This document shows positions 18,932 to 62,415 of a stretch of DNA of 64,000 bases, in pieces. A program made the translations under genes and the position numbers. The notes below the pieces were generated by a model that worked only from the letters and a program-made list of their open reading frames with translations, did not search any database and was not told the origin of the DNA. Every line of letters starts with the position of its first letter. Within the stretch, counting starts at the first letter, position 1. The DNA comes from Candidatus Tayloriibacteriota bacterium (GTDB lineage: Bacteria > Patescibacteriota > Minisyncoccia > Phycocordibacterales > PALSA-1337): the NCBI GenBank assembly GCA_016215455.1, contig JACRJP010000002.1:87622-151621 (forward strand), written 5' to 3'.

Positions 18932-18952
18932 GAAACATACGGTAATTACAAC

Positions 18953-18992
18953 AAAAAAGCCCTTCTATCATTCGATAGAAGGGCTTTTTTGT
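18953..18992 (+). terminator. Rho-independent terminator
   Basis: aaaagcccttctatcattcgatagaagggctttttt. Confidence 0.7.
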
Positions 18993-19367
18993 TAATCATG
19001 AAACATATTTCAGATAAATCCCCATAAATAAACTAACCGCGCTTGAAGAACAAGAGTAGGAACAGTTCTTCGCACGCGGTTTTGAGAGAAATCCACGTGC
19101 TTGCCAAAAGGGGTTTAAGTAATTTTCTTCTAAAAAGAAGTGATTTCCTAGAGGGAAACCTAAAAATATACTTGTGAAGAAATACTTCAACCAGCCTAAG
19201 CCAAACAAGGGTTTTCAATAACTACCCACTACGTTGGAAAAGAGCTGGTGGACTAAATGTCCTATAGTCACCGTACCTCGGTGTATGTGACTTTTATCTG
19301 GGATTAGTATAGCAACTGTAAAAGACATGTAAAGGACTTACTGTGGATAAGTCACAATAAATGTCCT

Positions 19368-53244: not shown

Positions 53245-53402
53245 GGTTATATGGGTATATTCTAACCTGACTTGACACAAAATACTATTTATGCTAGGAT
53301 ACTAGATGTAAACTTTTAAATAAGTTGGGTTCTATACAACTCCTGTAAAGCGGCACACCGAGTACTCTCGATGGCCGTTTTTACATATAATATCAAGTTC
53401 AT

Positions 53403-53550
53403 AAATCTCTAAGCAATTTAGCCTATTTGCGTAGGTTAACTGATGTTCGTCTAAGGACGTCCTGGTTCCACCCCGGTGTTCTTACTGGGTCTATCCTCGG
53501 GGGTTCGTTTAGCTTTTGGTGATCTCATTAAAAGTATTGCTTAGAGATTT
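53403..53550. repeat. 148 bp element bounded by perfect 15 bp inverted repeats with GC-rich palindrome-rich core
   Basis: aaatctctaagcaat (53403-53417) pairs with attgcttagagattt (53536-53550). Core contains aggacgtcct and ccaccccggtg palindromes. Confidence 0.5.
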
Positions 53551-53726
53551 CTGGACTTGATTGCACTATCGCGCATCTATTCTGTTGTAAATCGCTTTTC
53601 TCTCAATACCTTCTCTCACGTTTCTTTGAAGCGTTCTTTTGCTGCATTCAATACTACTCTTCCTTTTTTAAAATTCAATTGACACTGCAAAAATTCTGCT
53701 TCATAACAGAATTTCTTGTTAAAAAA

Positions 53727-55567: not shown

Positions 55568-56089
55568 ATGAAACCCTCGTTCCTTATCAGTCTATTTCTC
55601 ACTCTCGCTACCCTCGTCACGGGTTGCGCCCAGTCAGGTGCAGCTCATCGGGTTTATCCTGGTGGAACAACTAGTTACTCCTCGACTACGTCGACGGAGT
55701 ATCATGTGTCCCGTCCGGGACCGTCGTGGCAGGGTAACAACTTCTACGATCATCCGATCGGAGCGAGTCGGATTACTCCGGTTCGCACGTATCGGAGCGA
55801 GACTTTGGTGGACCTTGGAGTATTCCAACACCATCGAGTGTCAGAGAAGGTAGCCTCTCCAACACTAATTCTGCCAGATGGCAGGTCGGTAACGGAGGTT
55901 ACCCGCTATCAGTCGACTCAAACGTCGACTCGACCCCAGCAGGTCTATCCCACCACATCCTACGGTGGGTTCACTGGTGTCCAGCCCTCCTACATCGATA
56001 ATACGTCGGGGAGGTCGGGTCGCAGTTCATTTCCATCGTCATCGGTGACGGTGACCCCAGTGTCGCCTTTCAGGGCATTGGGTAGGTGA
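55568..56089 (+). CDS. Lipoprotein, Ser/Thr/Arg/Pro-rich, encoded in a conspicuously GC-rich segment
   Basis: MKPSFLISLFLTLATLVTGC signal with lipobox. The ORF track starts at GTG 55511. Codons such as TCG/ACG/GTC/CGG dominate, unlike neighbouring genes. Confidence 0.5.
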   Translation: MKPSFLISLFLTLATLVTGCAQSGAAHRVYPGGTTSYSSTTSTEYHVSRPGPSWQGNNFYDHPIGASRITPVRTYRSETLVDLGVFQHHRVSEKVASPTLILPDGRSVTEVTRYQSTQTSTRPQQVYPTTSYGGFTGVQPSYIDNTSGRSGRSSFPSSSVTVTPVSPFRALGR

Positions 56090-56166: not shown

Positions 56167-56619
56167 ATGCTTACGATTTCACATACGGTTGCCGAAACAG
56201 AATCACTCGCTTCTTTTTTTATATCTAAGTTAGTTGCTCGACCTCCAACCGCAGTTGCTACAGTTCTTGGTTTAAATGGTGATCTTGGATCAGGCAAGAC
56301 TGCATTTACAAAGGGAATAGCTCAAGCCCTCCATGTTCAGGAGCTCGTTACGAGTCCTACATTTGTTATTGAAAAGATATACCAACTCGACAATTCTCGT
56401 TTTGCTAACCTTATTCATATTGATGCATATCGACTTGATAAGGGGGAAGATTTGGTGAGACTTGGTTGGGATGCCATCATTAAAGACCCAAAGAATCTTA
56501 TTATCGTTGAATGGCCACAGAATGTAAAAGATATTATGCCAGCTAATACTATTGATATTGTGTTCACTTTCGTTGATCCTGCTACACGAGGAATTGAGAT
56601 TAAAGAAATACAACAGTAG
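56167..56619 (+). CDS. tsaE: tRNA threonylcarbamoyladenosine biosynthesis ATPase TsaE
   Basis: Walker A GDLGSGKTAFTKG and IHIDAYRL motif. ATG 56167 preferred over ORF-track 56086. Confidence 0.75.
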   Translation: MLTISHTVAETESLASFFISKLVARPPTAVATVLGLNGDLGSGKTAFTKGIAQALHVQELVTSPTFVIEKIYQLDNSRFANLIHIDAYRLDKGEDLVRLGWDAIIKDPKNLIIVEWPQNVKDIMPANTIDIVFTFVDPATRGIEIKEIQQ

Positions 56620-57035
56620 AGTAAAAATAAAAAGAGGTTAGGTGCCGGCAGGTAGCGCCCTACACACCACTACACGGGACATATACCCACCGGCACCAAC
56701 TCGAACTTAGGAGGGGGCTTTACTTCCCTCACTACGCCGCAACCCATCCGGGCTCGACATCTTTTCAATAGTTTATGATCAGGTCCGGCGGGCGTAAGCA
56801 ACACACAGCCTGCCCGCCGGACCATCACCCACAACCACAGCTACAACACACAAACTTGCAGGTGACCTCAGTCAGTCAATCCGCGTATCCATGTATCTCT
56901 TAACCTAGCAGTATGGCTGACGAAGATGAAGAGTGATCAAACTATTCTATCTAGCGTAATTGTACGCCCGTAGAGTTTTTGTTGTCAAATTTCTTTTTAG
57001 CACACTTTTTATTTGGTTAGGATATAATCTCATTA

Positions 57036-59495
57036 ATGCCAAAGACACCAGCAAAAACTACGTCACAAGAGCGATTAATCCTTCTTGATGCACATGCAAT
57101 CCTTCATCGTGCATATCATGCTCTTCCTGATTTCATGTCGACGAAAGGAGAACCTACAGGAGCTTTGTATGGTCTTGCAACAATGCTCATTAAGATCATT
57201 CAGGACCTGAAGCCAACATATATTGTTGCGTGTTACGATCTTCCTCAACCAACATATCGTCATGAGGTATATAAGGATTATAAAGCGGGACGTAAAAAGG
57301 CTGAACCTGAGCTTGTCTCACAGATGAAACGGTCACGTGACGTGTTCACTGCTTTTGATATTCCTATATATGACAATCCAGGATTTGAAGCTGATGACAT
57401 GCTCGGTACGATTGTTGAACAGGTTCTCAAAGGAAAAGAATTTAAAAATATCGATGTTGTTATTGCTTCAGGTGATATGGACACTCTTCAGCTTATTGAA
57501 GGAAAAAGAATCCAGGTATACACGTTAAAGAAGGGAATAAAAGATACTATTTTGTACGATGAAGAAGGAGTAATGAATCGATTTGGTTTTGGTCCAAAAC
57601 TTTTACCCGACTACAAAGGTCTTCGAGGAGACACTTCAGATAATATTATCGGTATTAAAGGTATTGGAGAAAAAACTGGCAGTATTCTCATTCAAACATT
57701 CGGTACGATTGAAAATATGTATAAGGAGCTCGATAAGAGCGACGAGCCTTTTAAAAAAGTAGGAATTACTCCACGTATCATAGACCTTCTAAAAAATGGA
57801 AAAGAAGAAGCAATGTTCAGTAAGATGCTCGCTTCAATTCGTCGAGATGCTCCAATTAAATTTTCTTTGCCGCATCCATGGAAGAGTGCTATTGATATGA
57901 AAAAGATCGATATGTTATGTGCAGATCTCGATTTCCGTACTCTCGGTGCTCGTGTTCGTGAAGCTATATCAGGTAAGATTGCATCAACAAAAAATAGCTC
58001 AACACAGTCTTCTGATGAGGGTTATCATGTTGCGTATGGAGAAGGAGAGGGTGATATAGAAACACATGATGGTGATACTCCAGAAACTATCGATGAAAAA
58101 GAATTACAGGAGACATTACTCGCTCTCTGGGTGGCTGATTCAAACAAAACGAATCCAACACTCGATGATATCTACACATTTGCTGGTGTTCGTAACTTTG
58201 CTCAGGCACGTGAGATTATATTCAACGAACTCAAAAAACGTGGAGGTGAAAAGATTCTTGAGACAATAGAAAAGCCACTTACACCTGTTCTTAAAAAGAT
58301 GCAGGACTATGGTATCAAGATTGATGTTACATATCTCAAGAAACTTTCGGAGGACTATCATATTGAGCTCGAAAAGATTCAAAAGAAGATTTGGGAATAT
58401 GCCGGTGAGGAATTTAATGTTGCTTCTCCAAAACAACTAGGTGAAATTTTGTTCGTAAAGATGGGACTCAAGGTAAAGAATCAAAAAAAGACAGGAACAG
58501 GTGCTTTTTCAACAAAAGAATCTGAGCTCGAAAAACTTCGTGAGACACACCCGATTATTGAGGAGATTCTCAAGTATCGAGAATTCGCAAAGCTTTTGGG
58601 TACATATATTGATGTGATTCCTACACTCGTTGATGATGGTAATCGTCTTCATACAACATTTATTCAATCAGGTGCTGCGACTGGTCGCATGGCATCTGAA
58701 AATCCTGGTATTCAAAATATTCCGAATAAGACAGAACTCGGACGCGCTATTCGTCGGGCCTTTATTGCGGAGAAGGGAATGAAGTTGCTTGCATTCGATT
58801 ATTCTCAAATTGAATTACGTATCGCAGCTTTTCTATCAGGTGATGAGAAACTCATTTCTATTTTTAAAAATGGTGAAGACGTTCACACCGCAGTTGCTTC
58901 ACAAGTATTTGGTATTCCGCTTGATAAGGTTGATAAAGAAATGCGACGACAAGCAAAAGTCATTAACTTCGGTGTCATGTATGGTATGGGAGTAAATGCA
59001 TTACGACAAAATCTTGGTACGGATCGTGCTGCTGCTCAGAAATTCTATGATGAATACTTTGCTAAGTTTTCAGGACTCGCAACATATCTTGAAAAGACAA
59101 AAGCAGAGACTGCTCTAAAAGGCTATACTGAGACGTTTTTTGGACGTCGCCGTTACTTCGAGGGTATTCGTTCAAAACTTCCTTTTATCCGTGCATCTGC
59201 TGAACGTATGGCAATCAATGCTCCTATTCAAGGAACTGAAGCGGATATTGTAAAGATCGCTATGATACGAGTGGATGAGTGGCTTACTGAAAAGAAATTC
59301 GGTGATAGTGTTCGTATGCTACTTCAAGTGCATGATGAACTTGTGTTTGAGGTTGAAGAAAAAATGATTCCTAAGATTGTCCCTGATATTCAGAGAATTA
59401 TGCAATCTGTTATTGATCCAAAAGAAACAAAGGGTGTTGTTTGTACAACTGAAGCGAAGGTGGGGGATACATGGGAAGATATGGATAAGTTATAA
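57036..59495 (+). CDS. polA: DNA polymerase I (5'-3' exonuclease + polymerase domains)
   Basis: FEN-type N-terminus (LLDAHAILHRAYHAL). Polymerase motifs RRQAKVINFGVMYGMG and QVHDELVFE. 819 aa. Confidence 0.9.
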   Translation: MPKTPAKTTSQERLILLDAHAILHRAYHALPDFMSTKGEPTGALYGLATMLIKIIQDLKPTYIVACYDLPQPTYRHEVYKDYKAGRKKAEPELVSQMKRSRDVFTAFDIPIYDNPGFEADDMLGTIVEQVLKGKEFKNIDVVIASGDMDTLQLIEGKRIQVYTLKKGIKDTILYDEEGVMNRFGFGPKLLPDYKGLRGDTSDNIIGIKGIGEKTGSILIQTFGTIENMYKELDKSDEPFKKVGITPRIIDLLKNGKEEAMFSKMLASIRRDAPIKFSLPHPWKSAIDMKKIDMLCADLDFRTLGARVREAISGKIASTKNSSTQSSDEGYHVAYGEGEGDIETHDGDTPETIDEKELQETLLALWVADSNKTNPTLDDIYTFAGVRNFAQAREIIFNELKKRGGEKILETIEKPLTPVLKKMQDYGIKIDVTYLKKLSEDYHIELEKIQKKIWEYAGEEFNVASPKQLGEILFVKMGLKVKNQKKTGTGAFSTKESELEKLRETHPIIEEILKYREFAKLLGTYIDVIPTLVDDGNRLHTTFIQSGAATGRMASENPGIQNIPNKTELGRAIRRAFIAEKGMKLLAFDYSQIELRIAAFLSGDEKLISIFKNGEDVHTAVASQVFGIPLDKVDKEMRRQAKVINFGVMYGMGVNALRQNLGTDRAAAQKFYDEYFAKFSGLATYLEKTKAETALKGYTETFFGRRRYFEGIRSKLPFIRASAERMAINAPIQGTEADIVKIAMIRVDEWLTEKKFGDSVRMLLQVHDELVFEVEEKMIPKIVPDIQRIMQSVIDPKETKGVVCTTEAKVGDTWEDMDKL

Positions 59496-60241: not shown

Positions 60242-61321
60242 TTAGTAACGGGCAACCTTCCAGCTTATTTTTTGACCTGCTCGGAAGGGGACGATCTTCG
60301 TTACGAATTTTGCCCCATTTCGCACGTCGTAGGCGAGGGGTACCGTCCAAGCCCGCTTCACCATAGTGAGCATTCTGGTTCTCCGCTTAATCCCATAGAA
60401 TGCGAGACCAAACTGACTTGAGAATCCTGCAAGACGTTCGAGAGCCTCATGTTTTTCGAACAATTCAACGAGCAAGGGGAGAGCAACGGGTGTTGTCCAA
60501 ACTCCAGCAGCACAACAATCAGCCTCCTTCTTGTCGAAGGGATGAGGCGCTGAGTCTGTTCCCCAGAAGAATTTGGGATCCCCTGAGATTGCGGCTCGCA
60601 CAAGAGCATCCCGGTCTTCGGGGCGCTTGGCATACGGGCGACACGCATGGTGTGGCCTGAGAAATTCACCTGCTCCAACAGGATCACACAACACATTGTT
60701 GAGGGTGAGAAAGAGATGATGCAAGGTGATACTTGCCGCAACCGTTTTCCCAAGATTTCGAACCAAATCAACAGCCGCTTTGGTGGTGATGTGTTCGAGA
60801 ACAATCCGCAGTGTCGGGAAATCCCGATGAAGTTGTCGAAGATATTCAAAGAAGAATTCTTCTCGATCGAGAACGAAGACATCTCCTCCGACTTCGCCGT
60901 GAATACAGAGAATCACCCCTGTGTCTTCCATGGCTTTGAATGTCGGGTATAGCTCGCGGAGCTTGTCCAAGTCGACACCGTCTGCTGAATTGGTCGTGAC
61001 ACCGACGGGATACATCTTCGCCGCAACAACACCCAACTTCTTGGCTTGAATGATGATATCCGGCGTGGTTTCCATTGTGAGCTTGATGAGGGTAAGTGGG
61101 AGAAACGAAGCGTTTGCTCCTCGGGCTGACCTCATGATGTCCGATTGGTAACGGCAAGCATCCTCACCGGTAAGAATGGGAGGGTTTGTGTTGGGCATGA
61201 CGATCGCACCATCAAAATGTCGTGCCGTGAGTCTCGTGACAAGACGCATGAGAGGACCTTGTCTCAGATGCGTATGCATATCGAAAGGACGAGGGATACG
61301 GAACATGGGAACTGATGTCAT
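60242..61321 (-). CDS. pyrC: Dihydroorotase (E. coli PyrC-type, class II)
   Basis: RPFDMHTHLRQG metal-binding start. Other blocks: AIVMPNTNPP, KMYP..TTNS, HGEV, LEHITT, GTDSAPH. Clearly GC-rich. Confidence 0.85.
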   Translation of the reverse strand: MTSVPMFRIPRPFDMHTHLRQGPLMRLVTRLTARHFDGAIVMPNTNPPILTGEDACRYQSDIMRSARGANASFLPLTLIKLTMETTPDIIIQAKKLGVVAAKMYPVGVTTNSADGVDLDKLRELYPTFKAMEDTGVILCIHGEVGGDVFVLDREEFFFEYLRQLHRDFPTLRIVLEHITTKAAVDLVRNLGKTVAASITLHHLFLTLNNVLCDPVGAGEFLRPHHACRPYAKRPEDRDALVRAAISGDPKFFWGTDSAPHPFDKKEADCCAAGVWTTPVALPLLVELFEKHEALERLAGFSSQFGLAFYGIKRRTRMLTMVKRAWTVPLAYDVRNGAKFVTKIVPFRAGQKISWKVARY

Positions 61322-61413
61322 ATCTCAGTAAGAGTCGTAGTTTATGAATGAACGCTTGATCCATATTACTTACCACAATAAGAAAAGCAAATAAAAATGC
61401 TGCCACAAATTGG

Positions 61414-62415
61414 TCAGCGATATGCGAGCCCCCGCTTATAGCGGATACTCTCATCTATGGTGGTTGCAACCATTGTCGGCGCAAGGAAGGCGATCGATCC
61501 CAACGAAATCGCATCAGCTCCAGCATCCAAGACTTCTTTGGCTGTGCGAGGAGAAGTGATTCCGCCTCCACCGATGATTGGTTTTCTGATTCCAGTGGCG
61601 CGCGCCTCTTTGATCCAACTCGTCACCATTGCGTGAAGAGGGGTTCCTGAGATACCGCCTCTGCCTTTGGGACCGAAGCGGTGTTCAAGAGGCGAGGTTG
61701 TCGTTCCAAAATACGACATCCTCAGTTCATCACTCGCCGCATTCCATGGTAGGGTGTTGAAGACGCATAAGGCTGCACATGCAGGTTCAACTGCAATTGT
61801 TCGTGCGATAGTCACAGGTGTCCCTGGCGAAAGCTTGACGATGTAGGGGACATCGAATTCATCTTTCGCTGCACGGAGCACGGGAACCACTTCGTCGGTG
61901 AACTCAGTGGGGTCGTGTCCTGTGTTGGGACAACTGAAATTAATCTGCACCCCAAATGGAGCCTTGAACTCCGGTTTCTTGTCGCGAAGCATTCGTGTCA
62001 TCGCAACAATTTCAGTAAGGCGTTGCGACGGAGTGTCTGCGACAGACATGATCGAAATCATGAAAGGTTCTGGCCATCTTTGCCAAAATCCTTGCTCGAG
62101 CAGAAATTCCATTCCAGGTCCGGAAAGACCAACTGCATTGATTGCGGCGCCTGTCCGTCGGTTGACGTGGATACATTTCGGCATCCACTCGCAGGGAGTG
62201 ACCCCGTCTGGTTTCAGGGGCATATTTCCTGCCCGAGCGTTCAGGGTAGTGGTCTTGCTCACGAATGTTGAACCATTGAAGTTAAGACCAAAAGGTTTGA
62301 GAAGATGGTGATACCACCAGCCTTTGCCGTGAAAATTACGAACGCCTGATGCGTCGATTACAGGAGAAAAGGGAATTCCCTCGAGATACAGTGTCTCTGA
62401 TCCAAGTGTGTGCAT
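61414..62415 (-). CDS. pyrD: Dihydroorotate dehydrogenase family protein (class 1-like, Cys active site)
   Basis: ASG motif (VIDASGV), active-site NFSCPNTG, FMN-binding PIIGGGGI...AGADAISLGS. GC-rich. Confidence 0.7.
   Translation of the reverse strand: MHTLGSETLYLEGIPFSPVIDASGVRNFHGKGWWYHHLLKPFGLNFNGSTFVSKTTTLNARAGNMPLKPDGVTPCEWMPKCIHVNRRTGAAINAVGLSGPGMEFLLEQGFWQRWPEPFMISIMSVADTPSQRLTEIVAMTRMLRDKKPEFKAPFGVQINFSCPNTGHDPTEFTDEVVPVLRAAKDEFDVPYIVKLSPGTPVTIARTIAVEPACAALCVFNTLPWNAASDELRMSYFGTTTSPLEHRFGPKGRGGISGTPLHAMVTSWIKEARATGIRKPIIGGGGITSPRTAKEVLDAGADAISLGSIAFLAPTMVATTIDESIRYKRGLAYR

Follow-up and report, generated by a model that had tools for sequence, protein, structure and literature searches.

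What fills the gap between tsaE and polA in a genome whose relatives mostly keep fewer than 40 nt upstream of polA? The window analyzed here is the whole 64-kb stretch of DNA, taken from a MAG of Patescibacteria (Paceibacteria/Parcubacteria-like) with a G+C content of ~40%, and its PolA is at most 69% identical to the top species-level GTDB matches. The locus is laid out as follows:

56167-56619, plus strand: tsaE (Pfam TsaE, 1.5e-30)
56620-57035: tsaE-polA gap, 416 bp
57036-59495, plus strand: polA

Part of this gap (56641-56900) had been singled out in the original prediction as GC-rich, stem-rich and non-coding, and every item of that description could be reproduced. G+C is indeed raised (0.51 versus ~0.40; 0.505-0.545 in 200-nt windows versus 0.37-0.41 in the flanks; the window's other intergenic regions have 0.28-0.43). 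No ORF of 60 aa or more is present, the longest being 54 aa (minus strand, 56670-56834) and 42 aa (plus strand), and stop codons occur in every minus-strand frame of the predicted transcript. The stem ggtgccgg/ccggcacc (56641-56648 and 56690-56697) exists and was extended by a repeat finder to 14 nt with 86% complementarity; the perfect 12-bp stem ggtccggcgggc/gcccgccggacc (56782-56793 and 56812-56823), the 9-mer CAGGTCCGG (56780-56788) and the C/A-rich tracts were found as well. The element as a whole is larger than first noted, spanning ~56625-56988 within the gap, and it is single-copy in the 64-kb window.

The reading of the segment on the plus strand could not be upheld, since the promoter, the U-run of the terminator and the helices that depend on G.U pairs all indicate the minus strand. 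The predicted transcription unit consists of:

56983-56988, minus strand: -35 hexamer TTGACA of the predicted promoter
56959-56964, minus strand: -10 hexamer TACAAT of the predicted promoter, with the predicted transcription start at ~56952
56625-56952, minus strand: predicted transcript of ~330 nt, between promoter and terminator
56641-56697, minus strand: terminator hairpin with a 14-bp stem, -32.8 kcal/mol
56625-56637, minus strand: U-run UCUUUUUAUUUUU, which follows the terminator and abuts the tsaE stop codon

The promoter, TTGACA-18-TACAAT (56988-56959, minus strand), agrees with the sigma-70 consensus at 11 of 12 positions. The 64-kb window has only three sites scoring at least 11/12, each of them between genes; the two besides this one precede correctly oriented genes by 67-77 nt, so matches of this quality appear to be meaningful in this organism. 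The terminator hairpin, at -32.8 kcal/mol, ranks second in stability among the hairpin-plus-U-runs of the window. It is followed by the U-run UCUUUUUAUUUUU on the minus side only; on the plus side the sequence then reads AACUCGAACUU. Because no minus-strand gene lies upstream of it on that strand, only a transcript initiated within the gap would explain this terminator. Judged from the sequence, the two marks of a stand-alone sRNA gene, namely a promoter of its own and an intrinsic terminator on the same strand, are both predicted here.

The fold predicted for the transcript (RNA position p = 56954 - window coordinate) is composed of the following modules:

56934-56946, minus strand: 5' strand of P1, AAUAGUUUGAUCA, the closing helix
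56824-56921, minus strand: P2, a long irregular hairpin with many G.U pairs
56782-56823, minus strand: P3, a GC hairpin that corresponds to the 12-bp stem mentioned above
56759-56781, minus strand: 3' strand of P1 and AU-rich linker, UGAUCAUAAACUAUUGAAAAGAU, the best-conserved interior stretch
56735-56758, minus strand: P4, a hairpin
56709-56733, minus strand: P5, a hairpin with a hypervariable loop

In this predicted order, P1 encloses P2 and P3 and is succeeded by the AU-rich linker, P4, P5 and the terminator. The 5' strand of P1 pairs with 56767-56781 (duplex of -11.6 kcal/mol), and the unpaired 5' tract of the RNA is CUCUUCAUCUUC. On the minus strand, the predicted RNA reaches an MFE of -136 kcal/mol and forms 113 pairs, including 21 G.U pairs, and 68% of its nucleotides are paired; the plus strand reaches -106 kcal/mol and 86 pairs.

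The folding z-score was dropped as a discriminator. Both strands of the element reach about -4.6 to -5.2 against dinucleotide shuffles (plus strand, -5.2), whereas other intergenic regions used as controls range from -6.5 to -8.5 and the CDS of a neighboring lipoprotein gene gives -4.6. Because these controls fold as well or better, fold stability alone is not diagnostic in this genome; it is the G+C content and the promoter and terminator signals that set the element apart. Among the intergenic regions, 18932-19367 (z of -6.5 on the plus strand and -7.6 on the minus strand) is the most extreme after the ruvB-pilB gap; it contains a long near-perfect palindrome, AACAAAAAAGCCCUUCUAUCGAAUGAUAGAAGGGCUUUUUUGUU, that resembles a bidirectional terminator.

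The ruvB-pilB gap itself holds a widely conserved structured RNA of ~150-185 nt (core 53401-53552, plus strand; outer stem ~53390-53562), located on the strand opposite to both flanking genes, in which a closing stem, AAAUCUCUAAGCAA/UUGCUUAGAGAUUU, surrounds three inner hairpins. A covariance model built from 13 sequences detected 25 related loci at E values of 1e-7 to 1e-31 (homologues include L064:60-211, L031:310-463, L001:710-865 and L050:433-581), and the plus strand always scored ~100 bits above the minus strand. Both sides have changed in 26 of 41 pairs, and 94.5% of cells are paired versus 39-50% in slid controls, with none of 500 shuffles reaching the observed values. The strand is fixed by conserved G.U pairs, and several homologues carry a U-run after the closing stem. 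This RNA has no match in Rfam even at E<=10, and it is 6S-sized but branched. We rejected the idea that the tsaE-polA element is a paralogue of it, as its covariance model does not match the element. It is better supported and more widespread than the element, and is probably the more significant of the two.

Relatives of the window locus were gathered by PolA and TsaE searches and by exact-protein look-ups. L059 and L071 represent the same species and are identical, and L072 is a strain of the window species with a synonymous divergence of ~6%. The closest relative, L060, has a PolA that is 83% identical and a tsaE-polA gap of 490 bp. L070 encodes a TsaE that is 81% identical over its 113 aa, on a 542-nt contig that ends 95 nt past tsaE. 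In L064, whose TsaE is also 81% identical, tsaE and polA are 21 nt apart and the element is absent; it is likewise absent from L065 to L069 (66% identical; tsaE-polA gap of 2-32 nt) and from ~45 other related species. The gap upstream of polA does not exceed 235 nt in any of the 46 related species scored, and is shorter than 40 nt in 33 of them. TsaE identity places the window, L060 and L070 closer to one another than to L064, and the element is a derived insertion common to these three. It is clade-specific, since L064, at a similar distance, and ~45 other species lack it, and dispensable, since L064 does without it. The promoter-to-terminator unit recurs in L060, and its terminator end in L070.

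Other insertions occupy the same gap elsewhere, with two unrelated ORFs in L062 and a different 180-bp insert in L061. The latter (L061:4821-5000; PolA 69% identical) contains a Shine-Dalgarno-like GGAAGGAGG, next to it a 6-codon ORF (MKYDKW) and, after that, a hairpin and U-run resembling a plus-strand terminator; together they suggest a leader peptide or an attenuator ahead of polA.

Searches by sequence did not extend this distribution. With blastn, nhmmer and tblastx against 58-70 related loci, we recovered only L059, L071 and L072 together with a polA-proximal block of 56 nt in L060. A metagenome scan with the pattern TTGACAACA-N13-17-TASAAT-N4-8-GATAGAA returned 18 matches, all of them unrelated promoters with no GC-rich segment downstream. 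A protein search with the N-terminal part of PolA, meant to pick up short contigs with the promoter end, yielded no close relatives that were new (best match, 79% identical), this domain being too conserved. A 12-nt identity between the linker and tsaE (56367-56378) was also set aside, as it is at the chance level for a 64-kb window.

Of the L060 gap, blastn and tblastx align only the 56 nt adjoining polA with the window. At the corresponding place, L060 has a minus-strand promoter, TTGACA-16-TAGAAT, which also scores 11/12; TTGACAACA of the promoter region is kept, and GATAGAA immediately 3' of the -10 hexamer (56951-56945) is identical, so that both RNAs have GAUAGAA at the predicted start. 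The terminator and U-run of L060 again abut the tsaE stop. The L060 element has a G+C of 0.51 versus 0.42 for its polA gene, and a folding z of -6.4. Despite the turnover of sequence, G+C is high in all three lineages (0.51, 0.51 and 0.60, versus 0.28-0.43 in other intergenic regions). An A-rich tract after the tsaE stop is common to the window, L060 and L070, and in L070 it is accompanied at the equivalent place by two small hairpins and, downstream of them, a GC terminator hairpin.

P1, P3, the linker, P4, P5 and the terminator occur in L060 in unchanged order, with the reservation that the correspondence of P1, P3, P4 and P5 was partly read by eye and made by hand, which leaves room for over-fitting. 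The P1-equivalent duplex of L060 has -9.0 kcal/mol, with compensatory changes read by eye. The base of P3, GGUCCGG/CCGGACC in the window, is GAUCCGG/CCGGAUC in L060, so that, again as read by eye, a G-C pair is replaced by an A-U pair. A 9-bp hairpin is found at the P4-equivalent place, where the compensatory changes were likewise read by eye, and the terminator differs by one double and two single compensatory changes. P2 shows 0 differences from strain L072 and is unalignable with L060. Of the 43 consensus pairs of the 3' domain, 9 still pair after changes on both sides, in a MAFFT/RNAalifold alignment of three sequences; the structure comparison as a whole drew on only two full-length homologues, a strain variant and a fragment of 95 nt. 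An HMM made from the aligned core of the window and L060 (P3 3' strand, P1 3' strand and linker) retrieves this family alone.

The strain comparison points tentatively in the same direction. Seven point substitutions separate the RNAs of the window and L072, and none of them breaks a predicted pair; when the same base changes were placed at random in a simulation, zero disruptions arose in 2.3% of trials (P=0.023). The substitutions at 56737 and 56753, both in P4, each convert G.U to A-U, and one other converts C-G to U.G. A cluster of nine differences (56716-56725) lies wholly inside the loop of P5, the stem of which is kept. In the terminator, all strain differences are at unpaired positions, and a 1-nt insertion of L072 at 56683 falls in the internal loop of its hairpin and frameshifts the sole 54-aa ORF. 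The 5' domain contains one substitution where ~12 would be expected at the synonymous rate (P=6e-5). This excess of conservation is suggestive only, being weakened by the patchiness of inter-strain divergence: difference-free runs of 236-350 nt are present in the flanking CDS as well, in a recombination-like pattern.

The segment had also been considered a possible fragment of foreign high-GC DNA like the lipoprotein gene next to it, an idea that found no support. The lipoprotein gene (55568-56089; G+C of 0.55, lipobox LVTGC) is not foreign, because relatives carry fast-evolving GC-rich lipobox genes (0.50-0.61) at the same position, of which only that of L064 is detectably homologous (34% identity). 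As for the element, blastn gave no match in the phage collection and a single 36-nt chance match in the plasmid collection, and the repeat finder detected no terminal repeats flanking it. It is nevertheless a clade-specific insertion.

Two further observations were made on the neighboring genes. In the lipoprotein gene, a patch at 56011-56038 has 11 inter-strain substitutions, mostly 3 nt apart; this points to a recombination tract under coding constraint, and the period of three implies that the gene is coding. Downstream, 60242-62415 comprises two adjacent minus-strand genes with a G+C of ~0.51 versus 0.40 for the genome, one of which is a weak, sub-threshold Amidohydro_2 match (Pfam, 26.3 versus the 26.4-bit cut-off) and the other DHO_dh-like (dihydroorotate dehydrogenase family). 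The genes after holA in L060 differ from this pair, which may be an acquired island.

Taken together, these data lead us to regard the element, with moderate confidence, as probably a stand-alone minus-strand gene for a structured non-coding RNA, a gain of a single genus-level clade. According to the model that can be drawn from the sequence, the sigma-70-type promoter (56988-56959) would start a transcript near 56952, which would fold into a 5' domain, with P1 around P2 and P3, followed by the AU-rich linker, P4 and P5, and would end at the strong intrinsic terminator (56697-56641) and its U-run down to 56625. Most likely, such an RNA would be a stable, structured sRNA acting in trans. A protein or a target RNA would probably bind at the P1/P3 junction, which is conserved, and at the single-stranded linker; P4, P5 and the terminator may serve mainly for stability and definition of the 3' end. 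In a bolder version, the element would be the founding member of a genus-restricted class of structured RNAs of ~330-390 nt in Paceibacteria, recently gained between abutting housekeeping genes, with a three-way-junction core that is protein-binding or catalytic and not a simple antisense; we offer this tentatively and consider it rather doubtful.

Could the same features be the relics of something that has ceased to function? On this account, the element would be a functionless remnant of a clade-specific insertion, either a decayed small gene or acquired DNA, with an old promoter and terminator and incidental interior hairpins. We consider this unlikely. It would suit the absence of the element from L064, L065, L066 and ~45 other species, as well as an interior that is unalignable with L060 although the PolA proteins are 83% identical; the tsaE-polA gap is a variable spot, as the inserts of L062 and L061 illustrate, and structured GC-rich sequence is not unique to the element in this genome. 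However, reduced genomes keep this gap very short, and 330-490 bp of junk in three lineages would be unexpected. G+C stays at ~0.51-0.60 and is not decaying towards 0.28-0.43; the promoter, 5' end, P1, P3 base, linker and terminator are kept; and the substitutions between strains avoid breaking pairs. Moreover, tblastx revealed no ORF remnant in common, and no phage or plasmid match accompanies the element.

A second alternative, which we judge quite improbable, is an action in cis, either as a structured spacer or 5' UTR of a plus-strand transcript that covers tsaE and polA, or as an antisense RNA that stops or degrades tsaE read-through and insulates polA. On the plus strand, AACUCGAACUU comes after the hairpin downstream of tsaE, which leaves tsaE without a terminator on that strand and makes read-through into the element likely; such a read-through transcript would be fully complementary to the minus-strand RNA. 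That tsaE and polA abut in relatives, where they are probably co-transcribed, is in keeping with a cis role, and so are the folding of the plus strand (z of -5.2) and a conserved TATAAT 6-7 nt before the polA ATG, which suggests that polA has its own promoter. On the other hand, a terminator is all that an insulator needs, and 330-390 nt that include a conserved junction and linker would be superfluous. The plus strand has 27 pairs fewer and is unable to form the 21 G.U pairs, and the conserved near-consensus promoter on the minus strand favors a dedicated transcript. The alternative also overlaps with the stand-alone RNA gene that we prefer, as one and the same RNA could be a cis antisense.

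The TATAAT before polA belongs to a motif, GG(A/T)ATAATC, which is conserved in four lineages with or without the insertion, TATAAT ending 6-7 nt before the polA ATG:

GG(A/T)ATAATC sites: window 57018-57038; L064:3150-3173; L061:4985-5003; L060:672-692

Its position suggests a polA promoter from which the mRNA would be leaderless or nearly so.

The suggestion that the segment is an atypical SRP or 6S RNA is a part of the original prediction that did not survive, while its core, a non-coding, GC-rich and structured RNA candidate that belongs to no known family, did. Searches with Rfam 15 at the gathering threshold on both strands gave no match to the element. Neither did cmscan with permissive filters on 1.8 kb around the locus (both strands, none at E<=10) or on the whole window, where nothing at E<=1 fell in the element and Rfam gave tRNAs elsewhere plus noise. 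Rfam returned nothing meaningful for the orthologous region of L060, and ARAGORN reported no tmRNA in the window, only five tRNAs at other places.

A highly diverged copy of a known universal RNA (SRP RNA, 6S, RNase P RNA or tmRNA) can be regarded as effectively refuted. Its size is within the range of RNase P RNA and tmRNA, CAGGUCCGG is present on the plus strand, and GAGGGAAGUAAAGCC recalls, if loosely, the consensus of the RNase P CR-I region, which we counted in favor of this explanation. Against it, Rfam yields nothing at E<=10 for either strand of the window locus or L060, and ARAGORN nothing; a universal housekeeping RNA would occur in relatives, and the element is missing even from close ones, which is incompatible with an essential RNA of this kind. 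The candidates also fail individually. For tmRNA, ARAGORN found no tRNA-like domain or tag frame and Rfam no match. RNase P RNA lacks an Rfam match, and the sole CR-I-like stretch is the hypervariable loop of P5, which differs between strains at 9 of 10 positions. 6S RNA has no covariance match either, and the predicted fold of ~330 nt is branched (P1 around P2 and P3, with three further hairpins) and not a 6S rod. For bacterial SRP RNA there is no covariance-model match, a domain IV motif of the GGUCAGGUCCGGAAGGAAGCAGCC type with a GNAR tetraloop was not found, and CAGGTCCGG turned out to be the 5' arm of a plain 12-bp hairpin.

Finally, a fast-evolving small-protein gene is hardly credible: there is a 54-aa minus-strand ORF at 56670-56834, ORFs of 71 and 65 aa are called on the minus strand of L060, and the neighboring lipoprotein gene proves that GC-rich fast-evolving genes exist here, but tblastx finds no peptide common to the window and L060, the 1-nt insertion of L072 at 56683 frameshifts the 54-aa ORF, which crosses P3, P4 and P5 and enters the terminator stem, and the 71-aa ORF of L060 begins upstream of the predicted promoter.

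The regulatory and structural RNAs of Patescibacteria (CPR) have hardly been studied, and our literature search found nothing on them. If the stand-alone RNA gene is real, ultra-small genomes that normally leave a few bases between genes would nonetheless gain and retain structured RNAs that are specific to a lineage and several hundred bases in length, and the unit would be a tractable target for metatranscriptomics. If it should in addition found a new class, it would be a case in which an ultra-reduced genome has evolved and fixed a structured RNA gene. The narrow distribution of the element limits its immediate significance.

Compared with known systems, the element shares with SRP RNA (4.5S, RF00169; large form, RF01854) the 9-mer CAGGUCCGG of the 5' side of domain IV. 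In the element, however, this 9-mer is on the wrong strand and falls in a perfect 12-bp stem capped by an 18-nt loop, whereas SRP domain IV is a loop-interrupted helix with a GNAR tetraloop; in addition, the element is absent in relatives. The likeness to 6S RNA (RF00013), which is abundant and often missed in divergent phyla, is that of a stand-alone structured RNA. 6S RNA is a rod of ~180 nt with a central bubble, while the element is ~330 nt long, multi-branched and confined to one clade.

In two studies from the Breaker lab, long GC-rich intergenic regions of AT-rich genomes were enriched for structured RNAs (Stav et al. 2019, PMC6429828; Brewer et al. 2021, PMC8632094). The element resembles the Breaker-lab candidates in being a long intergenic region with a G+C well above the genome average, and none of their published motifs in Rfam 15 matches it. 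Those motifs were accepted on covariation across many representatives, whereas the element is represented in two to three lineages.

The closest parallel is with stand-alone sRNA genes such as Spot 42 (spf), the gene of which adjoins polA in E. coli. The element has in common with them the predicted make-up of a self-contained, non-coding transcription unit with a sigma-70 promoter, an intergenic location, a GC hairpin followed by a U-run, unpaired stretches between hairpins and restriction to a narrow taxon. It differs from typical base-pairing sRNAs in being three times longer (~330-390 nt) and far more paired (68%), and has no sequence similarity to any sRNA in Rfam. The candidate RNA, which fits no known family, would count as a bacterial stand-alone sRNA.
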